Program-made: the position numbers and the translations under genes
The notes under the pieces: generated by a model
What the model was told of the DNA's origin: nothing
The model's database searches: none
What the model saw: only the letters and a program-made list of their open reading frames with translations
Part shown: positions 1 through 13,062 of the stretch, piece by piece
Numbering within the stretch: the first letter of the stretch is position 1
How the letters are laid out: each line of letters opens with the position of its first letter
Assembly: GCA_020248405.1 (NCBI GenBank)
Contig: JADCHQ010000033.1
Location: 2,791-66,790, forward strand
DNA from: Rhodocyclaceae bacterium
GTDB taxonomy: Bacteria; Pseudomonadota; Gammaproteobacteria; Burkholderiales; Ga0077523
Direction of reading: 5' to 3'
DNA length: 64,000 nt

Positions 1-3000
1 CATTGTTGATGGCCTCACCTAGAAAGGTCACCGGCTTAGAAGTGTTAATCGAACCGTCCGCATTCTTTTCAAACTTGCACCGCTCGTTCCCTCTTCCGCA
101 CAGCAAATCCAGGTCCACCCGCGTTCCGGCAATCTTGCGGCCGTCGCCGTTGACCCCCGCGCTCTCGCCGCTCAGATTGCTGAACAGGGGGTTGCCGACT
201 TTGTCCACCACCCCCGGGAACTTCAGTGAATCCTCGACCATGAGATCGCGCATCTTCTCGGCGGCGGTGGAGAGGGCTTCCTTGGTGATCATGCTGCCGG
301 CGTTGCCGGTGAGGGCGCTGGCGAGGATGTTCAAGGCGCGCTCCTGCATGTTCACATCCTTGATGGCTTTCTCGGTCTGGGCCTGTTCTTCGGGCGTGCT
401 GGCGTTGCGGACCAATTGTCGCAGGGCCGCGCGCTGGCTGGCGGCGAACTGGGTGATGGCTTGACTGGCCTCCAACCCGAAGCGCTGGGTGATCACCACC
501 TGCGCATCGAGTTCCTTCTGCACCCGCTCGGCATCGAAGACGGGCGCGAGGCCAGTGGCGGCATCGCCGGTGCGCGCGCCGCGATTGCCGGCGATCCCGC
601 TGATGGCGGCCTGGGTGAGGCTCGCGGCCCCGCCGTCCTGCCGGGCCAGCCCTGAACTGGAGCCAGCGGTTGCCAGGTTCACCGCCACGCTCTCCCCGTA
701 AAACCCCGCCCGGTTCGCCACGTCCTGCACGCTGAGCGCGCCGGAGTCGAAGCGGTTGCGCTGCCCGGCCACCGCCGGCTCGCTGCTGGTGATGGCCCCG
801 CCGCGCAGGGTGGTGGTGCCGGCGACCTGCACGCTGAAGCCGCCATCGCCGGCGGCGAGGCCGCTTTGTTCGTTGACGCTGGCGAAGTCGCTGTTGATGC
901 GCCCGCGGGCGAGGTTCAGGCTCCCCCCGGGGGTGGGGCCGAGGGTGAGGCTGCCACCGGTGGCGCTCTGGCGGCTCTGGTAGGTGCTGGTGTCTTGCAG
1001 GCTCTCGATCAGCAGGTTGCCCGCCACGGTGGCCTCGACGCGATTGGCCCCGAGCAGGGCGCCGCGCACGGTGGTGTCGCCGCCGCTGTCCAGGCGCAGG
1101 GTGAGGCCCTCCAGGCGGGTGGCGCTCCAGGAGAGATCGTCGCCCGCGGCGCTGCCGCGGCTGGTGGAGCCGGCGAGGGTGAGGCCGGGACCGGCGCCGC
1201 CACCCAGGGCGATGCCCACGCCCACGGCGGCGCTGGAGCCGCGGCTGGTGCTGCTGAGGCTGGCCTGGTTGGCGGCGCCCAGCAGCGCGATGCTGTCCTC
1301 GGCCGAGAGGCGCAGCGCCTCGCCGGCGCGCAGCGTGGAGCCGCGTACGGTGATGTCTCCGCTCGCCCCCGTGGCGCGAATATCAATATCACCCCCCGCC
1401 GCCACGGTGGACCCGGCGGCGCGGTCGCTGGTCTGCAGGCTCGCGCTGCTGCTCTGGCTGCCGCCGAGGCTGATGCTCAGGTTAATCCCCCCGGCCTGGC
1501 CGGGGTTGGCGCGGAAGGCCTGCGCGCCGTCGCGGGCCGCCAGGGCGGTGCTGGCCGCCGCCAGGGCCTTCATGCGCCCGTCGCGGGTGTCGGCCGCTGC
1601 CGCGCCCATCTGCTGGGCGGTCTGCACGGCGTTCACCACCGGGTTGGTGAGCGCCAGGGTGAGGCCGCTCTGGCGGGAGCGCGTCTCGGTCTGCTGGCGG
1701 CTGGTCTCGCGGGCTTCGAGGATGTCCACGCGCTGGGCCTCGATGGCGATGTCGCCGCCGGGGGCGAGCAGGTGGCTGCCCACCTGGGTGTAGGCCCCGC
1801 CGGCGCGGATGGTCACGTTACCGGCGAGGCTGCCCACGGTGGCGGGGGCGGCGGTGGTGAAGCTCGCCTGCTGGTCCAGGCTGAACTGCTGGCGGCCCAG
1901 GGTGAGGGAGAGGCCGCCGCCGCTGAACAGCCCGCTGCGGCTGGTGGCGCTGAAGCTCGACTCGGTGCGCGTGTTCTGCCCCGCGCGGAGGGTGATGTCG
2001 CCCGCGGCGCCGAGGCTCACCTCGCGATCGGCGAGGACGTTGGAGGCGGTGATCTCCAGGCCCTGGCCGGCGCCGATGGCAATGCGCGCCCCGCCCAGCT
2101 CGCTGGCCACGGCGGTGGTGAGCGAGGTGCTGCTGCGCTGGGTGGTGGAACTGGAACCCAGGCCCAGGAAGCCGCCGCGGGAGCGGCTGTAGCTGGCGGT
2201 CTGCATGTCGAAGCTGCTCTGGCCGGCCTGGATGGCGATGCTGCCCTGGGTGGCGCTCAGGTCGAGGGCGTCCGCCGCCTGGAGCCGCGCGGCGCGCAGC
2301 TCCATGTCCCCGCGCGAGAGCAGGGTGAGCGAACCGGCGGCGCTGATGTCGCTGCCGGCGTCCTGGCTAGTGTTCGCTCGCGCGTAGTTGCGGCTGTCGC
2401 GGGTGACATCGAGGCTGCTGGTGAGGCGCACGGTGTCCAGGGTGAGGCTGCCATCGGATTGCAGCTGGCTGATGCCCGTGCCGGCATTGCGGATCTGCGC
2501 CGCGGTGAGGGTGAGGGCGCCACCGGCGGAGGCCAGCAGCGAGCCTGCCGGGCCGCTCACGTACAGGCCGGCCACGCGATCGAGCTGCCGGGAGGCGAAT
2601 ACACCGTTGCCCGCCGCCCCGGCGCCCTGGGCGGTGGTGCTGGTGATGGACAGCGCCCCGTCGGCGCGCACCGCCAGGCCGGTGACGGCGGCCACGCGGC
2701 CGCCATCGATGGAGAGGTCTTGCCGCGCATTGAGCAGCACCGCATCGCCTTGCACCAGGCCGCTGTTGCGGATGTCGCCCGCGCCGATGTTGAGCAGGCG
2801 CCGACCGGCGATGGTGCCGCTGTTGTTCAGGGTGCCCTGCAGGGCGAGGCTGATGTCGCTGGCGCTGATCAGGGCGCCGGTGGCCTGCGCGCCGCCGAAC
2901 AGTGCGCCGCTGGCATCCAGATCGCCCGGCCGGGGGGCGAGATACACCTGGGGGACGAGGGCGGTGGTGGTGGTGCCGTCGGGCAGTTGCACCGTGCGGC

Positions 3001-6000
3001 TTACCAGCCACACCACGTCGCTGGTGAGTTGCGCCACTTGCTGGGCGGACAGGGCGATGCCGGGGCGCAACTGCTGGGCCTTGGCGAGGGTGGCGCCCGC
3101 ATTCATGAGGGCGCGGTACTGCTGCTCGTCGCTGCGATAGTCGCCCAGGAACCGGTAGCCGGTGAGCGCGGCCACCTGGTCGCGGATGAGGCGTTGCTCG
3201 TAGAAGCCATCGCCGAGGCGCTTTTCGGTCAAGGCCGGGTCGGCTCCCAGCGCCGAGAGCATGTAGTCGCTGGACAGCCACTGGCGGTAGCTGGCGAAGC
3301 GGGGATCGGTTTCCACCACATAGCGGGCGTTGCTGCCGGGGTCGATCCTGAACAGGCTGCTGTTGGGCAGGACAAGCGCCGGGGCAGGTTGGGGGGAGAG
3401 GGTGGGAGTGCTCAAGGCGCCGGAGCCGGAGTCGGCCTGGCCAGGACCTTGGACGGAGGCGTCAAGGCTCTGGCTGTCGAGGGCCAGCGTTGGGGTCAGG
3501 GAATTACCGCTACTGGCACCGGGCAGGGCACCGGTGGCCGGCAGCGCCGCGATCATCAACCCGCTGCCGGAAGGCGCGGCGTTCTGCTCGAACCGCAAGA
3601 CCGGCAGGGGGACTTCGCGGGCGATAGTTTCCTGGTAGGGGCTTGAAATCCAGCCATAAACGGCATCGCATTTCCATCTCCACCTGTGCCAACCGCACTC
3701 TTCGCCAACCTGGCCCCACTGATTGACGGTACCGCTTCGAAGTGTAGGAGCTTCAACTGTTGTCGACTGGTTGCTCAGCGCGTCCGCTTGAGCGGAGATG
3801 GCGCCCCCCACAACAATCTGGCTGTCTTGATTGAGGCCTGATCCGGTGAGCGTGAGTTGCAGATTACCGCCGACACTGATGACGCCAGGGCGGCTTAGGG
3901 TGACTTGAACGGCTTGCACCGTCTCGGTGTATTGGCGATAAAGCTCGGAACTCAACCAATGCGTCACCTGGGTCTGTGTTTGCGGCACCAGTGTCCAGCT
4001 AAGGTGCTCGTTCGTGTTCTGCAGCCTACCGGTAGCCAGAGCCATATTGCCCAGGCTTTCGAGAGTGGCACTGTGGTTGTTCAGGCTCTGTGAATTGGCG
4101 CTGCCGCCGATGATCGCCCGGTTGCTGGAATCCAGCGCCCCGCTCAGGGCCATGTCCCCGGCGCTGAACATGAGCGCGCCTTCGCGGTTGAGGATGCTCT
4201 GTGCGCCCACGTCAAGCCGCTCGCGTGCAGCGATGGTGGCCGCACTGGTTTGGCCGCTTATGGTTTCCTCCCGGTTGGTGAGGCTATGCGCGGCGATGGC
4301 GATGAAGTTGCCGAAGATGCGGCCGGTGCCAAGGTTATCCAGGGTCTGGCTGTTGATGCGGGCATGGATGCCGTCCACAAGGCCGCGGTTGGTGATGGTG
4401 CCGCTGCTGTTCTGCGTGGTGTCCAGCAAGGTGACGCCACGACTGAGCAGCTCGCCGCTGGTTCGGTTGTCAATGTGGTTTGCGCGCACCATGAGATCCT
4501 GCCCGGCCTGCCACTGCCCGGCGTTCTGGAATGTGCCCCCGTGGAGTTGGAGGCTCAGGTCGCCCCCGGCGCGAATCTGCTGGCCACTGGCGCTGATCAT
4601 GTCACCCACCAGGTCGAGTGCCATGGCGCCACCGCTTTGCGCGGTGCCGTCCGCGCCCAGGCTCCTGGCAGTGATGCTCAGGATGCTGTTGGCGGGACTC
4701 GTGTCGTTGTTGGCCACGATGACGCCGCTGCTGTTGCCGATGGCAAGGGCGCGCTGGTTTGGCGTGGAGGCAGTGTCCTGAAGGGTGAGGGTGCGCTTGG
4801 CGCTGAGGGTGCCGCGCGTGTTGGTGATGGCAGTGGAGGCAATGATGGCGAGGTCGCGTTCCGCGAGCGCTTGCCCGTCGGTGTTGTTCACGGCGCCGGC
4901 GCGCAGGGACAGATCCATACCGACAATCCCCTGGCTGCTGGTGCTGGTCTGGCTGTTGTCGATGGTGGCGCCGTTCAGGCTGACCCCGACGTTGGATTGA
5001 ATCAGCCCACTGACATTGCCAATGCCGGCGCTGGTGGCGAGGTTCATGTCCCCTTGGGCCAGGATTCGTCCACGGGTGTTGGTGAGATCAGCATCGCGAG
5101 CGTCGACGGACAGGCTGGCAGCCGCCGCCAACAATCCGTCGGTGTTGTTCACCCCATTGGTTGTGATGCTCAAACTGCCAGCCTTCGATGCTGCAGTGCC
5201 TGCGGCGTTGTCCAGGGCCCCGGCAGCCGTGAGGCTGATATCGCCCCGGGTTACCACGCGGGCCGCACGGATGCTTAGGGTGCCCGTTGCAGCGATGGCG
5301 GCACTGTGGGCGCTGGTTTCGCTGCCGTTGAGGTTGATGCCAACCCCGCCCAGGATAATGTCGCCGGTGGCGAGGTTTGTGCCCGCGGCGCGCAGATCGC
5401 CAGTGGTGGTGATCTGTAGCGCGGGACCACCGGGATCAAAGACCTTTAGGCTGCCATCGGCATTGAGCCCGGCGGCCAGGGTGCCAGAGCTCTCGAGGCT
5501 GCCGGCATGCACGCTGAGATTACCTGCGGCGGCCACGGAGCCGGTGCTCGTGAGCGACTGGGCAAGGGTGAAGTTGGCATCGGTGCCGGCGTAGACGGCA
5601 CCGGCCAGGTTGGTGTGGTTGCCAGCCGTGACACTGATGCTGCCCACAGTGATGAGTTCGGCGTGGCCGGTGCTGAAGGCGCCCGTGGTGGTGATGCTGG
5701 CGCTGTAGGCAACGGTTTCGCTGCCGGTGAGGTTGATGCTCGCGCCGCTCAGGGTCACGGCGCCAGCGGCGAGGTTGCGGCCGGTGGCCTTGAGGGCACT
5801 GGTGGCGGTTATCGTCAGCGCCGCCCCGTTCGCGGCGAAGGCCTTCAGGCTGCCATCGGCATTGAGCCCCGCAGCCAGGGTGCCGGTGCTGTCGAGGCCG
5901 CTGGCCTCGATGGTGAGATTGCCCGCGGCGGCGATACGTCCGCTATTGATCAGCGTGTCGCTTGCGCCAATGCCCGCGTTGCCGGCCGACTGAAGCTCTC

Positions 6001-7762
6001 CCGCGTTTACGAAGCGCTGCACATTCACCGCAAGAGCATCCTGCGTGTAGACCTGCGCTCCCTGGGATTGAAGGTATTCGGTGCCGCCAAAGCTGGCGGT
6101 GTTAGCCAGCAGGGCGCCGCCGGTCAGGGTCACAGTGCTGGTGAGTACCGAAAGATCCTGGGTTAGCAGCGTGCCGCTGCTGGTTTCAAAACGCTGGCCG
6201 CTGACTTGCACGGTTTGGGCGCGCATGTTGCCCGCATTGGTCAGGGATTCAGTGGCGCTCAGATGAAGCGCGCCGGCAGCGGCGATGGTGGCGGCGGCCT
6301 GATTGAGCAAGGAGCCGCTAATGCTGACGAGACCGTCAGCCAGGGTAGCGGGCGCGGGGGTTGAATCCGAAGAAGGTGCGGGCGGGACAGGAGCCGGAGC
6401 TGGGGAGGGCGAGGTCTGCACGGCACCCATGGCGGCGCCGGAGGCATTGGTAAGGGCGGCGGCACTTACACGCAAGGCCTGACCGCCGCTTTGCCAGATA
6501 TCGCCGCTGTTGGACAGGCTCGCCACCCTCACGTCCAGGCGCTGGGCGTTGATCCGGCCGCTGTTGGACAGATCGCTGGCACGAAGATTGGCCTCAAGTC
6601 CCGCGCGAACGCTACCGCTAATGTCGATTACGGAGCGGTGGGCTTCCGCGCCGGCATGGAGAAAGACATTGCCCGCTGCCGTGATGCTGCCGCTATGGGT
6701 CTGCGCCTGCGCGGTTTGCACCCGGACATTCCCCTGACGAGCCTCGATCTGGCCAGTGGACGAAAGCCATCCGTTGGCGTCGATATGCACGTCGCCCACA
6801 CTGGCGCTTAGGGTGCCGTGATGGCGCACGCCCAGACCAGCTTCGGTGCCGATCAGGGCAATCTTGCCGGCGTACATGCCGCCGAGCTGGCTTACGTCAA
6901 GCGCAAGAACCGGTGTGCTGCCACTGGCGGTGCCGGTGGCCTGGGCCCGCACGGTGGTTTGGTCGGCGCTGACGGTGTTCGTGCCAGATACCACCTGGAG
7001 GTGCTGCGCATGAATGGCAGCGTTCACCTCGATGGCCCTTGCCAGGATGCCGGTGTAATCGGTGAGCCGGGCATCCAGGCCGGCGCCATCGATGCGGATG
7101 GTGCCCCGCTCCACCCGATAAGTCTCCAGACTGCTGCCGCTGAAGACTGGTGTGCCGGTGGTGAGCGTGGCGCGGCTCGCGTTGATGAAACCCGCGCCGT
7201 CCACGTTGATGCCGGCGGGGTTGGCAACGATGACTTCGGCGCGCTGGCCCGCCACCTCGATGAAGCCCCTGATGTAGCTGGGGTTGCTGCTGTTGACTTC
7301 ATTGACGATGACGCGGGCTTCTCCGCGCGCGAGCCACGGATTGCCCTGCACCCAGCCGCCAAGCGCGGTTTGCACGTTGATGCGGCTGTTGTTGAGCACC
7401 GCACCGGGTGTACCCACGTCGAACTGCTGGTAGGTATTGCGGCTCACGCCCGCGGCGCTCGGGGTCTGGATGTTCACCAGCGGCACGTCGTTGGGCGTGC
7501 TGAGCACCGTGGGGCGCTCGCCGCTGGGGGCCCCAGGGTCGGCCACGATCTGGGCCTGAACCAGCGCGCTGGCAAGCAACCCCATGCCGGTGGCGAGCCG
7601 TGTGGCCGTGCGCAGGAGCGACCGGGGTGTCCCAGAAAGGCGGCTAGCGCCCTTGGCGGCCGGTACTCCATCGCCCTTGCCGCAGCGCCCCGCGTTCTCG
7701 GCCGTCACCATGATGCAGCCGCGGGCGGCATTGAAGACAAGTCGATAGATTCCCTTGTTCAT
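1..7762 (-). CDS. cdiA: TpsA exoprotein of the CdiA / filamentous-haemagglutinin family; 5' part only (about 2587 codons), C-terminal tip lies beyond the left window edge
   Basis: Absent from the ORF track because there is no stop in the window. Manual minus-strand translation from ATG 7762 (GGAGA a few nt upstream) gives MNKGIYRLVFNAARGCIMVTAEN..., an ESPR-type signal. TPS-domain motifs follow: NIQTPSAAGVSRNTYQQFDV and EVIVANPAGINVDGAGFINASRATLTTG. Then come kilobases of G/A/S/T/N/L-rich FHA-type repeats and the conserved block SSLFRIDPGSNARYVVETDPRFASYRQWLSSDYML..KRLGDGFYEQRLIRDQV (nt ~3100-3350). A pretoxin-like VQKELDAQVVITQRFG.. segment lies near nt 300-600. I spot-checked the frame as stop-free at 2-121, 3241-3340, 3602-3781, 7201-7230 and 7553-7762. 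It is still open at nt 2. Confidence 0.85.
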   Translation of the reverse strand, partial: MNKGIYRLVFNAARGCIMVTAENAGRCGKGDGVPAAKGASRLSGTPRSLLRTATRLATGMGLLASALVQAQIVADPGAPSGERPTVLSTPNDVPLVNIQTPSAAGVSRNTYQQFDVGTPGAVLNNSRINVQTALGGWVQGNPWLARGEARVIVNEVNSSNPSYIRGFIEVAGQRAEVIVANPAGINVDGAGFINASRATLTTGTPVFSGSSLETYRVERGTIRIDGAGLDARLTDYTGILARAIEVNAAIHAQHLQVVSGTNTVSADQTTVRAQATGTASGSTPVLALDVSQLGGMYAGKIALIGTEAGLGVRHHGTLSASVGDVHIDANGWLSSTGQIEARQGNVRVQTAQAQTHSGSITAAGNVFLHAGAEAHRSVIDISGSVRAGLEANLRASDLSNSGRINAQRLDVRVASLSNSGDIWQSGGQALRVSAAALTNASGAAMGAVQTSPSPAPAPVPPAPSSDSTPAPATLADGLVSISGSLLNQAAATIAAAGALHLSATESLTNAGNMRAQTVQVSGQRFETSSGTLLTQDLSVLTSTVTLTGGALLANTASFGGTEYLQSQGAQVYTQDALAVNVQRFVNAGELQSAGNAGIGASDTLINSGRIAAAGNLTIEASGLDSTGTLAAGLNADGSLKAFAANGAALTITATSALKATGRNLAAGAVTLSGASINLTGSETVAYSASITTTGAFSTGHAELITVGSISVTAGNHTNLAGAVYAGTDANFTLAQSLTSTGSVAAAGNLSVHAGSLESSGTLAAGLNADGSLKVFDPGGPALQITTTGDLRAAGTNLATGDIILGGVGINLNGSETSAHSAAIAATGTLSIRAARVVTRGDISLTAAGALDNAAGTAASKAGSLSITTNGVNNTDGLLAAAASLSVDARDADLTNTRGRILAQGDMNLATSAGIGNVSGLIQSNVGVSLNGATIDNSQTSTSSQGIVGMDLSLRAGAVNNTDGQALAERDLAIIASTAITNTRGTLSAKRTLTLQDTASTPNQRALAIGNSSGVIVANNDTSPANSILSITARSLGADGTAQSGGAMALDLVGDMISASGQQIRAGGDLSLQLHGGTFQNAGQWQAGQDLMVRANHIDNRTSGELLSRGVTLLDTTQNSSGTITNRGLVDGIHARINSQTLDNLGTGRIFGNFIAIAAHSLTNREETISGQTSAATIAARERLDVGAQSILNREGALMFSAGDMALSGALDSSNRAIIGGSANSQSLNNHSATLESLGNMALATGRLQNTNEHLSWTLVPQTQTQVTHWLSSELYRQYTETVQAVQVTLSRPGVISVGGNLQLTLTGSGLNQDSQIVVGGAISAQADALSNQSTTVEAPTLRSGTVNQWGQVGEECGWHRWRWKCDAVYGWISSPYQETIAREVPLPVLRFEQNAAPSGSGLMIAALPATGALPGASSGNSLTPTLALDSQSLDASVQGPGQADSGSGALSTPTLSPQPAPALVLPNSSLFRIDPGSNARYVVETDPRFASYRQWLSSDYMLSALGADPALTEKRLGDGFYEQRLIRDQVAALTGYRFLGDYRSDEQQYRALMNAGATLAKAQQLRPGIALSAQQVAQLTSDVVWLVSRTVQLPDGTTTTALVPQVYLAPRPGDLDASGALFGGAQATGALISASDISLALQGTLNNSGTIAGRRLLNIGAGDIRNSGLVQGDAVLLNARQDLSIDGGRVAAVTGLAVRADGALSITSTTAQGAGAAGNGVFASRQLDRVAGLYVSGPAGSLLASAGGALTLTAAQIRNAGTGISQLQSDGSLTLDTVRLTSSLDVTRDSRNYARANTSQDAGSDISAAGSLTLLSRGDMELRAARLQAADALDLSATQGSIAIQAGQSSFDMQTASYSRSRGGFLGLGSSSTTQRSSTSLTTAVASELGGARIAIGAGQGLEITASNVLADREVSLGAAGDITLRAGQNTRTESSFSATSRSGLFSGGGLSLTLGRQQFSLDQQASFTTAAPATVGSLAGNVTIRAGGAYTQVGSHLLAPGGDIAIEAQRVDILEARETSRQQTETRSRQSGLTLALTNPVVNAVQTAQQMGAAAADTRDGRMKALAAASTALAARDGAQAFRANPGQAGGINLSISLGGSQSSSASLQTSDRAAGSTVAAGGDIDIRATGASGDITVRGSTLRAGEALRLSAEDSIALLGAANQASLSSTSRGSSAAVGVGIALGGGAGPGLTLAGSTSRGSAAGDDLSWSATRLEGLTLRLDSGGDTTVRGALLGANRVEATVAGNLLIESLQDTSTYQSRQSATGGSLTLGPTPGGSLNLARGRINSDFASVNEQSGLAAGDGGFSVQVAGTTTLRGGAITSSEPAVAGQRNRFDSGALSVQDVANRAGFYGESVAVNLATAGSSSGLARQDGGAASLTQAAISGIAGNRGARTGDAATGLAPVFDAERVQKELDAQVVITQRFGLEASQAITQFAASQRAALRQLVRNASTPEEQAQTEKAIKDVNMQERALNILASALTGNAGSMITKEALSTAAEKMRDLMVEDSLKFPGVVDKVGNPLFSNLSGESAGVNGDGRKIAGTRVDLDLLCGRGNERCKFEKNADGSINTSKPVTFLGEAINN
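5315..5960 (-). repeat. In-frame tandem duplication inside the cdiA FHA-repeat region, period 399 nt (133 codons)
   Basis: GGTTTCGCTGCC occurs at 5315 and again at 5714. The exact 23-mer AGGCTGCCATCGGCATTGAGCCC occurs at 5448 and 5847. The ~250 nt around each copy align by eye with most positions identical. The encoded peptides are ..TLAAGLNADGSLKVF.. and ..TLAAGLNADGSLKAF.. Confidence 0.8.
7130..7510 (-). other. TPS (haemagglutination-activity type) secretion domain of the CdiA-like protein; approximate bounds
   Basis: Motifs present: VLSTPNDVPLVNIQTPSAAGVSRNTYQQFDVGTPGAVLNNS, GNPWLARGEARVIVNEVNSSNPSYIRGFIEVAGQRAEVIVANPAGINVDGAGFINASRATLTTG. The NPxGI motif sits at nt 7208-7222. Confidence 0.75.
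7553..7762 (-). other. Extended signal peptide (ESPR plus n/h/c regions) of the CdiA-like protein
   Basis: The sequence reads MNKGIYRLVFNAARGCIMVTAEN...RTATRLATGMGLLASALVQA / QIVADP. The MNKxxYRxxxN start is the extended signal peptide region seen on TpsA and autotransporter precursors. The cleavage position is my estimate. Confidence 0.7.
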
Positions 7763-7777
7763 GTTTCGGTGTCTCCG

Positions 7778-8302
7778 TCAGGCCATTATCGGGCGTTGCC
7801 GCCTGAATTCCATGGCGTTTGCGCGCGAGCAGCCGGTCCTGCGCCAAATCATCAGCTTCTGCCCGGACCAGCGGCTGCGGGGGCTCAGGCTTCTTGCGCT
7901 TCGTTCCGAAAACAGGTCTTGAATCGTGCGGCGCAGCGTCGCCTCGAAGCCGTTGGGCGCGATGGGGTGAATCAGCCACAGGTGGTCGCCGAAATGCTAC
8001 GCCTTAGGCGGCAACGGCATGGAAGGGTCGCGGACATACTGCCTCTCGAATACGGCGCTCAGGTTCGCATAGGAGAGCCACAATCGCAGCTTCCCCGTTC
8101 CTTGCCCATCCTCGCTGGATACCAACACCTCGCAGCCCGCCGCCTGAGGCTGCAGAACGAGCTGATTGAGTTGCCGCAGTGCAAAGTTCTTCACCTTCGG
8201 TGCCTGCATGGCCAGCCAGACAACGGCACCGAACGCCGCCGTGGCCTCCATCGTGCTGCGGCCCGTGGCTGGGGCGTGGATGAGATAGCCCATGCCTGTC
8301 AT
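7778..8302 (-). pseudogene. cdiC: HlyC/CyaC-family toxin-activating lysine acyltransferase (CdiC-like), interrupted by an in-frame TAG at 7997-7999
   Basis: Track ORF 7997..8302 (101 aa) stops at TAG. The same frame continues HFGDHLWLIHPIAPNGFEATLRRTIQDLF... to TGA 7778-7780. The joined 174-codon product aligns by eye along its whole length with E. coli HlyC. Matching blocks are FGAVVWL..AP..N versus GHVSWLW.SP..N, LSYANLS versus CSWANLS, and GDHLWLIHPIAPNG versus GDRKWFIDWIAPFG. The TAG falls where HlyC has Trp (..AEDWTSGD..). Confidence 0.75.
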
Positions 8303-8323
8303 CTGGAATCTTCCGGTAGTCCG

Positions 8324-10078
8324 CTAGAAGGTTGCGTTGAAACTGAACCCGGCCACCATGTCAGCCGTAACGAACCCCGGCGGCTTGGCGAGCGGACGGC
8401 CAGCGAAGACTTCGTAGGCGACCCACTTGAAGGTTCCGCGTACCCCAATCGCGGCGCCGCTGAGGCTGGTGCCCGTGAGCCCCGTGGTGCTTGGGCCGCC
8501 CACCTGGCCATGGTCAAGCGCAATGAAGATGTCCTGTCCAAGGCCAGAAAGGGCCCAGCTCAGTTCGTTGCGCGCCAGCCAGCCGCGGTCGCCCAGGAGC
8601 AGCCGTTCGCCATCGAAGCCGCGTACGCTGTACCGGCTGCCAATGGCGAAGCGGTCTTGCGGCACCAGGGGCGTGCCGTTCCATTGCGCGCGCAACTCCG
8701 AACCAAAGCGGAGCCGTTGCCCGCCAAGGGCGAATGGCACCCCCAACTGCAACTGGGAGAAGGTGATTCGCGGCTGTGACGTGCCTTCTCCGAAAGCCTC
8801 CTCCGGCGCTGGTATGGAGCCCATGGCACCGGTACCTGCCCGGTAGCCGAGAGTCAGGTCAAGAGTCACGGCGCGAAGGAACCGGCGGTGGTTGGTCGAG
8901 ACCTCCCACCCTGCCATACGGCGGCGTTGCACTTCGATTTCGGTGTCGTCGATGAAGTTGGCGGATTCGCGTGCCCAAAAGCGCAAGGCAAGCCCTGTCT
9001 TGCTCATCGCATCGCGGTGCACGATGCGAGAAAGCCGCACGTCGTTGTTGCGGCTTTGACCGCTGTAGAGGTAGGTCTGGCTGGCGCCCACCACGGACTG
9101 GCGGTAGCGGCTCTCGCTGGCGCTGAACGCCAGGAGCCAGTAACCAAAGGGGATGGAATAGTGGACGATATGGCCGTTGGTGCCTCCGTCGCCCGCGGCG
9201 TTGGCAAGGTCGCGGTTAAGGCTGACGTAGAACAGGTCGCTCGACGTCCACCAGTTGTCGTAGGAGAGGGTGAGATAGCCCTGGTACCTGCCTGTGGTGG
9301 GAATGCCCGAATCGTCGGCGGACAGGCTCAGGCGAAGGGGGAAGCGCTGCTTCCAGGCAATGACCACGTCGCTCTCACCGGGCTTTGCGTTGTTGCCCTC
9401 GGCGGGGACGATGCGCAGGTCAGCCTCGATTGTGGGAACCCGCTTGAAGTTCTCGAGCGCCTGCTCCAGGTCGCGCAGGTTGAGTAGGTCGCCCGGCTTC
9501 GCCGGAATCGCGTTCCAGTGGCTGGCACGCATATCGGGTGGGTCCGCGAAGCGGATCGCCCGAATCCGCCCCGGCAACACCGTGAGCGTGAGCATGCCGG
9601 TGGAGAGATCCTGCGGTTGGGCCAGAACACGCGTAGTGACGAACCCGCGTGCAACGATGGCGTTTTGCACCCGGCGCATGAGTTCGTTGATGCCGCGGGC
9701 GCCGAGGCAACGGCCGCGGGCAGCATCGGCCGAGCTATCGCCCGCCGTGTCCACTGCGCCCAGGGACCACGCAAAGCGCTGCGAATCGTCCCCTGCGAGC
9801 TGGATTCGCTCGATGACGAAGCACGGTTGCTCTGGCGCCAAGCGGTATGTGGGGGCGGGTTCCTCCCGCTTGAGGAACACATCGGCGGAGGGCTGCTGCT
9901 GCTCTCGCAGAGCACGTTCGCGTTCCTGCTGCCGGAGAAACTCCTGGTCGGCTGCGCCCGGCGAGACTGTTTGGGCACGGGCGCCGCCAGAGCAAACACT
10001 CGCCGCGAGCAGCAAGCTCGCCAGTCGAAGAACTCTCCTTTGAAGTGCGAGCCCCCAGCCTGGCCGCGATGCCAGCAC
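8324..10078 (-). CDS. cdiB: TpsB outer-membrane transporter of the ShlB/FhaC/HecB/CdiB family (POTRA domains plus beta-barrel)
   Basis: The track ORF is 8324..10321. It has ShlB-type sequence throughout (..CFVIERIQLAGD.., ..LTLTVLPGRIRAIRF.., ..RYSVRGFDGE..) and ends ..AGFSFNATF with a terminal aromatic residue. The only signal-peptide-like segment (RRVLRLASLLLAASVCSGGARA/QT) begins ~90 codons in. I therefore propose GTG 10078 as the start. The upstream 81 codons are Cys/Trp-rich and AT-richer, and are probably leader. The start is uncertain. Confidence 0.85.
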   Translation of the reverse strand: MLASRPGWGLALQRRVLRLASLLLAASVCSGGARAQTVSPGAADQEFLRQQERERALREQQQPSADVFLKREEPAPTYRLAPEQPCFVIERIQLAGDDSQRFAWSLGAVDTAGDSSADAARGRCLGARGINELMRRVQNAIVARGFVTTRVLAQPQDLSTGMLTLTVLPGRIRAIRFADPPDMRASHWNAIPAKPGDLLNLRDLEQALENFKRVPTIEADLRIVPAEGNNAKPGESDVVIAWKQRFPLRLSLSADDSGIPTTGRYQGYLTLSYDNWWTSSDLFYVSLNRDLANAAGDGGTNGHIVHYSIPFGYWLLAFSASESRYRQSVVGASQTYLYSGQSRNNDVRLSRIVHRDAMSKTGLALRFWARESANFIDDTEIEVQRRRMAGWEVSTNHRRFLRAVTLDLTLGYRAGTGAMGSIPAPEEAFGEGTSQPRITFSQLQLGVPFALGGQRLRFGSELRAQWNGTPLVPQDRFAIGSRYSVRGFDGERLLLGDRGWLARNELSWALSGLGQDIFIALDHGQVGGPSTTGLTGTSLSGAAIGVRGTFKWVAYEVFAGRPLAKPPGFVTADMVAGFSFNATF

Positions 10079-10432
10079 GGGTGCACGAGGAAACCAGGCG
10101 CGGATGCGCGGCTCCCTACTCAGCCCACGCTGCTGGTGTTCGGGGAACTTGCCCAGCGAGTCTGGACTGCCTGGCGCTCGCTCGCAAAGACACGTCTCAC
10201 ACCAGCCCTCTCCGTGGAAGCCGGGAAGGGGCTGACAAACTGACTCCAGATTTCCGGTGAGACGTTCCATTGCCAACCCAAAGCGGATGAGGGATCGCAA
10301 ACAAGGCGGAACCGTCTCCACCGCGAATACAAAACGGTCGGGTCAGGCCATCCGCCTTCATTGAACTTAACGTTCGATGCGCGGAACCGGAAAAAGCTAG
10401 ATACACCTCACTGCCCTACAACTCAACCCCCG

Positions 10433-11957: not shown

Positions 11958-13062
11958 TCAGACGCCCTGCTTGAGGCTGGCGGTGATGAAGTTGTCCAGG
12001 TCGCCATCGAGCACGGCCTGGGTGTTGCCCACTTCCACGTTGGTGCGCAGGTCCTTGATGCGGGACTGGTCCAGCACGTAGGAGCGTATCTGGTGGCCCC
12101 AGCCGATGTCGGTCTTGGAGTCTTCCAGGGCCTGCTTTTCTTCGTTGCGCTTGCGCAGTTCCAGCTCGTAGAGCCGGGCCTTGAGCATGGCCATGGCCTC
12201 GGCGCGGTTGCGGTGCTGGGAGCGGTCGTTCTGGCACTGCACCACGATGCCGGTGGGGATGTGGGTGATGCGGATGGCCGAGTCGGTCTTGTTCACGTGC
12301 TGGCCGCCCGCGCCGCTGGCGCGGAAGGTGTCCACGCGCAGATCGGCGGGGTTGATGTCCACTTCGATGGAGTCGTCCACCTCGGGGTAGACGAACACGC
12401 TGGCAAACGAGGTGTGGCGGCGGGCGTTGGAATCGAAGGGCGACTTGCGCACCAGCCGGTGCACGCCGGTTTCGGTGCGCAGCGTGCCGAAGGCGTAATC
12501 GCCGCTCACCTTGATGCTGGCGCTCTTGATGCCGGCCACTTCGCCGGGAGATTCTTCCAGCAGCTCCACGGCGAAGCCGCGGCGCTCGCAGAACTTGAGG
12601 TACATGCGCTCCAGCATGGCGGCCCAGTCCTGCGCTTCGGTGCCACCCGAGCCCGCCTGGATGTCGATGAAACAGGCGTTGGGGTCCATGGGGTTGGAAA
12701 ACATGCGGCGGAATTCCAGGTCCGCCACCAGTTTTTCGATGCCGCCGGCGTCGGTTTCCACCGCTTCAAGGGTGGCGTCATCGCCATCGCCCTTGCCCAG
12801 CTCGAACAGCTCGGCGCCATCCCTGAGCCCCGCGTCGATGTGCTCGAGCGTGACCACCACCGCTTCCAGCGCTTTTTTTTCCTTGCCCAGGTCCTGGGCT
12901 CGCTTGGGGTCGTCCCAGACCTTGGGATCCTCCACCAGGCGCGAGACTTCGCTCAGCCGGCCCTTCTTGGCATCGAAGTCAAAGATACCTCCGGAGTTCA
13001 GCGGCCCGGCGGCCCAGGTCTTCGAGGTGCGCGGCGATGGCGTTGAGGCGTTCGGCTTCCAT
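11958..13062 (-). CDS. prfB: Peptide chain release factor 2, made by a programmed +1 frameshift
   Basis: The track shows only the downstream frame (11958..12935), which carries the SPF and GGQ motifs ([39 protein letters not shown]). The upstream frame from ATG 13062 reads [27 protein letters not shown] then TGA. Shifting +1 continues [22 protein letters not shown]. Confidence 0.95.
12978..12993 (-). promoter_or_regulatory. prfB +1 frameshift site: CGG AGG TAT CTT TGA C (SD-like GGAGG, slippery CUU, in-frame UGA)
   Basis: The minus strand reads ..CTCCGGAGGTATCTTTGACTTCGAT... This is the canonical RF2 autoregulatory recoding signal. Confidence 0.9.

Follow-up and report, generated by a model that had tools for sequence, protein, structure and literature searches.

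We find that the in-frame TAG in a cdiC-like accessory gene of an uncultured, betaproteobacterial freshwater member of the Burkholderiales is very probably a genuine nonsense mutation, which would leave a null allele between cdiB and cdiA in a TPS/CDI locus; judged from sequence comparisons, the species cluster is losing this gene to decay but keeping cdiB and cdiA. The window, by which we mean the whole stretch of 64,000 nucleotides that was analysed, holds a transporter gene, an HlyC-family gene and an exoprotein gene in this order on one strand (Table 1). The cdiB-cdiC-cdiA order is that of class IV CDI loci, for instance in E. coli STEC_O31 (Halvorsen et al. 2021, PMC8510554). Like the window gene, class IV CdiC is a HlyC/TAAT-family protein of ~175 aa encoded between cdiB and cdiA; membership of the window CdiA itself in class IV is putative, its receptor-binding region aligning poorly.

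The cdiC-like gene has 174 codons (8302..7778, minus strand; start ATG at 8302-8300 from the ORF reading), and translation ends after residue 101 of 174, at a TAG in place of codon 102. Past the TAG the frame reads HFGDHLWLIHPIAPNG... up to a TGA at 7780-7778, with no change of frame. The preliminary description had proposed that a CdiC-like acyltransferase is split here exactly at a conserved Trp, by a single G-to-A change (TGG to TAG), and that no start codon close downstream could rescue the C-terminal half. All of this is borne out by our analysis. The Pfam HlyC match runs continuously across the stop and the codon falls in a Trp column of the family alignment. Because close relatives show TGG at exactly this codon, the lesion is one G-to-A change at window position 7998, read on the coding strand. 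No ATG, GTG or TTG occurs in frame after the TAG until codon 151 of the gene, and we rejected an internal restart on this ground. The TAG is thus predicted to remove the invariant S-G-D-R block together with the residue that corresponds to the catalytic Asp and all that follows.

Table 1. Features of the cdiB-cdiC-cdiA region, with positions in the window and the basis of each assignment.
Feature	Position	Strand	Basis
cdiA/tpsA filamentous exoprotein gene; ATG at 7762, 2587 stop-free codons to the window edge (...FLGEAINN)	1..7762	-	ESPR, TPS, Fil_haemagg_2
Aromatic/basic patch GWHRWRWK(1364)CDAVYGW in CdiA, candidate acyl-acceptor region	3650..3694	-	alignment; putative acceptor role after PMC8510554
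Shine-Dalgarno-like GGAGA, 9 nt upstream of the cdiA ATG	7772..7776	-	sequence reading; putative function
Untranslated C-terminal remnant of the cdiC-like gene, codons 103-174 and TGA; in frame and family-homologous; carries S104F (7992) and R107H (7983)	7778..7996	-	Pfam HlyC, allele comparison
42-nt patch with 7 perfectly linked TAG/TGG differences (8024, 8022, 8014, 8010, 7998, 7992, 7983)	7983..8024	-	allele comparison
Premature TAG, codon 102, in place of the Trp of W-x-S-G-D-R; intact alleles have TGG	7997..7999	-	allele and family alignment
N-terminal 101-codon ORF including the premature TAG, cdiC-like (HlyC/TAAT family)	7997..8302	-	protein P0008
Codon 70, Gly (GGG) in the window; every other allele has Trp (TGG)	8093..8095	-	allele comparison
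cdiB/tpsB outer-membrane transporter gene, longest ORF 665 aa, GTG start	8324..10321	-	ShlB (2.3e-94), POTRA_2, POTRA_3

The homology of the two halves is recognised most clearly when they are joined. With the Trp restored, the product matched Pfam HlyC (PF02794, cut-off 25 bits) at E = 1e-12 and 48.5 bits, residues 23-143 covering profile positions 1-117 of 127, and the two halves, each taken alone, fell under the cut-off, with 13.9 and 23.4 bits. Even so, the C-terminal remnant by itself aligned with profile positions 77-118 at E = 5.9e-5. The preliminary description had left room for the region after the TAG to be unrelated to the acyltransferase family; the match of the 174-codon product to the family HMM spans the stop, and this was not found. 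The TAG codon aligns with W82 of HlyC and W97 of E. coli CdiC, with which the W-x-S-G-D-R block begins; of the ~80 family-wide representatives in a MAFFT alignment, those that align at this column have Trp with two exceptions. A search of NCBIfam with the joined product gave no match. The profile of the clade matches ApxC (PDB 4WHN) with E = 2.1e-8, and the window gene shares, end to end, 29% identity with an E. coli CdiC.

The clade to which the window gene belongs departs from the family at the catalytic residues. Where the catalytic His would stand (H23 of HlyC, H24 of ApxC, H37 of CdiC), the window allele and every close relative have Val37, and more distant members of the clade have A, I, G or T; the position of the catalytic Asp (D93 of ApxC, D107 of CdiC), which in the window lies beyond the TAG, is an invariant His112. 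In contrast, His and Asp are kept in enterobacterial CdiC and in most other family representatives, and His37 and Asp107 are essential in E. coli CdiC. The non-canonical relatives (P0002, P0004-P0006, P0022, P0025-P0027 and P0029-P0031) include intact members. The window gene has in common with the RTX acyltransferases HlyC, ApxC and CyaC (PF02794) the W-x-S-G-D-R and IAP-x-G blocks, but its partner is a TpsA/CdiA protein where theirs is an RTX toxin, and the window copy stops at residue 101. His24 and Asp93 of ApxC are absent from the window clade, and so, probably, are Asn35 and Arg121, for which the mapping of residues is less secure. Thus, of the features expected of a HlyC/TAAT protein, we found the profile match in the window gene, and found neither the catalytic His nor the catalytic Asp nor an open frame of ~170 codons. 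An AlphaFold2 model of the intact allele, built from a 9-sequence alignment, had a mean pLDDT of 43.6, which is too low for a usable structure.

The preliminary description had offered three explanations for the TAG: a recent pseudogene, a strain-level on/off polymorphism, or an error of sequencing or assembly in one record. Single-base errors do occur, and nothing else speaks for an error. The truncated 101-aa product identical to P0008 occurs in 57 contigs and 83 sample blocks, from NCBI MAG records, JGI/IMG, ENA and Logan; at least seven NCBI MAG protein records hold it. TAG was present in 14 of the 14 independently assembled contigs (JGI, ENA, Logan) that were read with a truncated product. 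Among these are ten contigs (L001-L010) from JGI, ENA and Logan samples, drawn from at least four data sources, which over 6.3 kb share 99.97-99.98% identity with the window, and four more contigs whose truncated products differ slightly. The TAG is, moreover, always linked to six other variants of the same patch. With the same TAG assembled independently in so many metagenomes and MAGs, the third explanation falls away, and we regard an error as having a next to negligible probability.

The comparison of orthologous loci for TGG versus TAG found both alleles. TGG and an intact 174-codon gene are present in five contigs that are 99.4-99.5% identical to the window (L011, L016-L018 and L022) and in four that are 97-98% identical (L019-L021 and L023), and the TGG contigs share the synteny of a class II aminoacyl-tRNA synthetase, cdiB, the cdiC-like gene and cdiA. 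Both alleles also occur within single sample series: SRR24363069/070 (TGG) versus SRR24363074/076 (TAG), SRR9302965 versus SRR9302966, and SRR24002806 versus SRR24002807. Since TAG and TGG are found in strains that are 99.5% identical, a recent pseudogene and a strain-level polymorphism are not alternatives but hold together.

The TAG strains do not form one clone, because the flanks of one of them, L012, have no differences in 2477 nt from those of L016, a TGG strain, but seven differences from the window, which is also TAG. At nt 118 and nt 305 every one of the four combinations was seen, and from these combinations and the identical flanks of L012 and L016 we conclude that the allele segregates in a recombining population. 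Among the assembled wild lake strains TAG is the common (major) allele, with a ratio of TAG to TGG of about ten to one among the assembled contigs of the 99.5% clade, although contig counts follow strain abundance and assembly success and are no census of allele frequency. In the region of the cdiA signal peptide, six SNPs (7693, 7636, 7610, 7601, 7600 and 7586; 7586-7693, minus strand) set the window and L001-L010 apart from all other strains, TAG and TGG alike; this cluster is probably another short recombination tract.

The differences between the TAG and TGG alleles are concentrated in one short patch of 42 nt (Table 1). This clustering has a Poisson P of ~6e-13, none of 100000 permutations was as clustered, and divergence elsewhere is ~0.15%. 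With an outgroup that is 71% identical (L024), W102*, S104F and R107H are derived on the TAG side, and one synonymous change, S94Y and P98L, all three common to the 97% clade, are derived on the TGG side; the seventh difference, a synonymous change at nt 289, is not polarised by the outgroup. None of the TAG-lineage changes shown to be derived is synonymous. S104F and R107H, which affect the same invariant motif, are present in every TAG allele. In addition, W70G is found in the dominant strain (window and L001-L010) and P96Q in another; codon 70 is Trp in all but one outgroup representative of the clade, and W70G is a further lesion inside the TAG lineage. Reverting the TAG alone would not give back the conserved protein, because S104F and R107H, and mostly W70G, are present as well.

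Two scenarios fit the patch. In one, the 99.5% clade is where the TAG haplotype originated, and the TGG alleles found there are repairs, by a tract of at most 124 nt from a donor of the 97% clade; in the other, the patch with the TAG came in from an older pseudogene outside the sampled strains. No haplotype with S94/P98 and W102 was seen among the alleles compared. Two DNA-pattern scans for intermediate haplotypes gave no match in a metagenome contig collection that evidently does not index the contigs in question. Neither scenario accounts for the three hits within 16 nt: three derived changes (W102*, S104F and R107H) so close together in one motif have a P of ~0.003 under random decay after the stop, and the cluster suggests a multi-base or recombinational origin. 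Template switching from a nearby quasi-repeat found no support, as the window has no second copy of the 24-nt stretch with up to three mismatches allowed.

We compared dN/dS (Nei-Gojobori) of the three genes at two depths. Against the L024 outgroup (dS of cdiC ~1.1), dN/dS is 0.16-0.17 for the cdiC-like gene, 0.18 for cdiB and 0.36-0.37 for cdiA, and from the deep value of 0.16 it follows that the cdiC-like gene was long a working, constrained gene. Within the species cluster, dN/dS is 0.11-0.21 for cdiB and 0.28-0.43 for cdiA, and 1.1-2.75 for the cdiC-like gene, a value above 1 that rests on 2-4 synonymous changes and could in part reflect diversifying selection, not relaxation. The pair L016-L019 has 15 nonsynonymous and 2 synonymous differences in the cdiC-like gene (Nd = 15, Sd = 2; Fisher test versus the flanking genes, p = 0.0008-0.003). 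Indeed, the ORF-intact alleles of the 97-98% clade (L019/L023) have G25R, W75C and I172R, at positions that are invariant in eight outgroup sequences, and therefore an open frame is no guarantee of function. The ORF-intact L019-L023 alleles also carry L76R and L42R. From the dN/dS within the cluster together with the radical changes in intact alleles, constraint on the cdiC-like gene has apparently been released across the species cluster. The gene seems to have been freed from purifying selection in the cluster as a whole, with the TAG as the most visible outcome, and cdiB and cdiA appear, by the same comparisons, to stay constrained and intact.

The start of cdiB is ambiguous: for sister contigs, gene callers give 518, 563 or 648 aa in place of the longest frame of 665 aa, in which the Pfam domains begin only at residue 198. 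CdiB ends in ...FNATF followed by a TAG (8326-8324), 22 nt before the cdiC-like gene; a terminal aromatic residue is typical of outer-membrane barrels. The ATG of cdiA lies 15 nt past the TGA of the cdiC-like gene, and translation of cdiA need not be coupled to that of cdiC, because cdiA has a Shine-Dalgarno-like sequence (GGAGA) of its own. The complete cdiA encodes 2712 aa in sister contigs, and in L041 CdiA extends 125 aa past the ...EAINN of the window edge; no PT-VENN match was found in CdiA with Pfam. In L041 (15681-16688), a 125-aa ORF that overlaps the cdiA stop is followed by a 179-aa ORF. These two ORFs, which gave no match in a Pfam search, may be immunity genes or orphans; no toxin or immunity function was recognised in them or in the last 125 aa of CdiA.

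The CdiA of the window is 32% identical over 1874 aa to CdiA of a cdiC-bearing E. coli locus (L044; E. coli M8, NZ_CP019953.1 3472601-3498891), with the receptor-binding region gapped. The annotation of that E. coli locus gives cdiB and the 5' portion of cdiA as fragments of pseudogenes, with cdiC intact, a pattern of decay opposite to that in the window. Lys1364, in the patch GWHRWRWKCDAVYGW, aligns with a KKK segment of this E. coli protein (YYRIKKKGTDK), which is not the CdiA of STEC4; the sequence of L047 and L048, two outgroup contigs, does not reach the receptor-binding region of CdiA. The Lys1364 patch is identical in TAG and TGG strains, and a co-decay of the candidate acceptor lysine was rejected for this reason.

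The effect of losing CdiC is known from E. coli, where the enzyme attaches 3-hydroxydecanoate to Lys1467 in the receptor-binding domain of CdiA (CdiA-STEC4) and where deletion of cdiC, H37A and D107A each reduce inhibition ~100-fold with export of CdiA unaffected (PMC8510554). The preliminary description had inferred that CdiA would be made unmodified, which presupposes acylation by the intact enzyme; because Val and His stand at two residues that are essential in E. coli CdiC, such acylation is putative in the window clade. Natural loss has also been described (PMC8510554): Salmonella S-1643 has a frameshift, and Rhodoferax is among those that lack the gene. The Salmonella case includes a mutation of cdiB as well, whereas cdiB and cdiA of the window are intact. 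The window is a new example of this already documented loss of cdiC, by ordinary gene decay. In the course of events that we propose, mutation of TGG to TAG would have produced a null cdiC-like allele with no nearby restart, and recombination would have shuffled it against TGG alleles with otherwise identical flanks. CdiB would, by analogy with E. coli, still export CdiA, which would be made without modification or assistance from the accessory protein, and the loss may be tolerated or near neutral, the accessory function having perhaps become dispensable in the lineage already.

Other readings of a real TAG have to be weighed against gene decay. The gene might still be functional, either because readthrough or suppression of the TAG gives the full-length protein or because the 101-aa fragment works by itself; indeed, the frame past the TAG is still open and recognisably homologous, and the truncated ORF is well kept in many strains. 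However, at 65% G+C a stretch of 72 codons without a stop is nothing unusual, the orthologues carry TGG, so that the stop is not conserved, and the invariant residues past it are hit by S104F and R107H, with W70G in the N-terminal part. This organism uses TAG as a normal stop, as the end of the adjacent cdiB shows; the only tRNAs in the window are tRNA-Val and tRNA-Pro, with no tRNA(CUA) suppressor among them, and suppression or reassignment of the code was rejected on these two grounds. No recoding signals, whether repeats or structures, were found around the TAG, and the orthologues with TGG likewise speak against programmed recoding. Low-level natural readthrough of UAG is possible, but we consider a functional gene highly improbable. 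An in-frame stop within a conserved gene is also found ~5 kb away in prfB (release factor 2; 11958-13062, minus strand), which has a canonical programmed +1 frameshift site (ATG at 13062, GGAGG at 12992-12988, CTT at 12984-12982, in-frame TGA at 12981-12979, then C) and of which gene callers give only the downstream part of 325 aa. In prfB, however, the recoding signals are conserved and the stop is kept across bacteria, while the TAG of cdiC is accompanied by no recoding signals and does not occur in orthologues.

That both states occur in nearly identical strains living together would also be expected of a reversible, phase-variable switch of the acyltransferase. But we found no tandem or inverted repeats in 7600-8500 and no homopolymer at or near the TAG, and the lesion is a base substitution with neither a simple-sequence repeat nor an invertible element. 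It is linked to two missense changes in the same motif, such that reversion in a single step would not restore the wild type, and the exchange between alleles resembles short-tract homologous recombination and not a programmed event. A switch is thus exceedingly improbable. Of the on/off polymorphism that had been suggested, the strain-level polymorphism stands and the on/off part does not, since S104F and R107H are linked to the TAG and no switching machinery is present.

The loss could instead be adaptive, with the null allele dominant because it was positively selected, for instance if CdiA without modification has another target range or brings a lower cost or less self-intoxication. The ratio of about ten to one for TAG, the presence of the TAG patch on several flank backgrounds and the three changes on the single most conserved motif can all be read in this way. 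The contig counts, however, track one near-clonal strain (L001-L010, at least 99.97% identical to the window), and the radical changes that have likewise built up in alleles of the 97% clade with an intact ORF fit relaxation better; we take positive selection to be unlikely. A further reading concerns the clade rather than the stop. Wherever the context was seen outside the cluster (L047, L048), the gene of this clade lies between cdiB and cdiA, and since the clade is strongly conserved over deep divergence (dN/dS 0.16) and always found in this place, it must have some function, with canonical catalysis putative. The clade could represent a re-wired, TAAT-like accessory factor of CdiA with another chemistry or a non-enzymatic, chaperone-like role, and the lake species would then be a natural experiment in which that factor has become dispensable and is disappearing from several lineages with the toxin system kept. 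Some TGG alleles may, on this reading, be a dead gene repaired by a recombination tract of at most 124 nt. We hold this account to be rather doubtful, though worth entertaining, and prefer decay of a cdiC-like gene by a genuine nonsense mutation.

The reading of the TAG as a nonsense mutation has a direct consequence for annotation: this copy should be entered as a pseudogene, and not as the 101-aa "hypothetical protein" of the NCBI MAG records, nor as an error to be corrected. Specialist attention is best directed at the Val/His clade and at the odd 42-nt patch, the Val/His "dyad" being a testable lead for the enzymology of TAATs. The null and intact alleles that occur together in near-identical wild strains would provide isogenic-like pairs for examining the role of the accessory protein. 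The locus would be a natural example in which the acyltransferase-family partner of CdiA is dispensable while the exporter and the toxin are kept, in agreement with the observation that deletion of cdiC in E. coli weakens, but does not abolish, contact-dependent inhibition.
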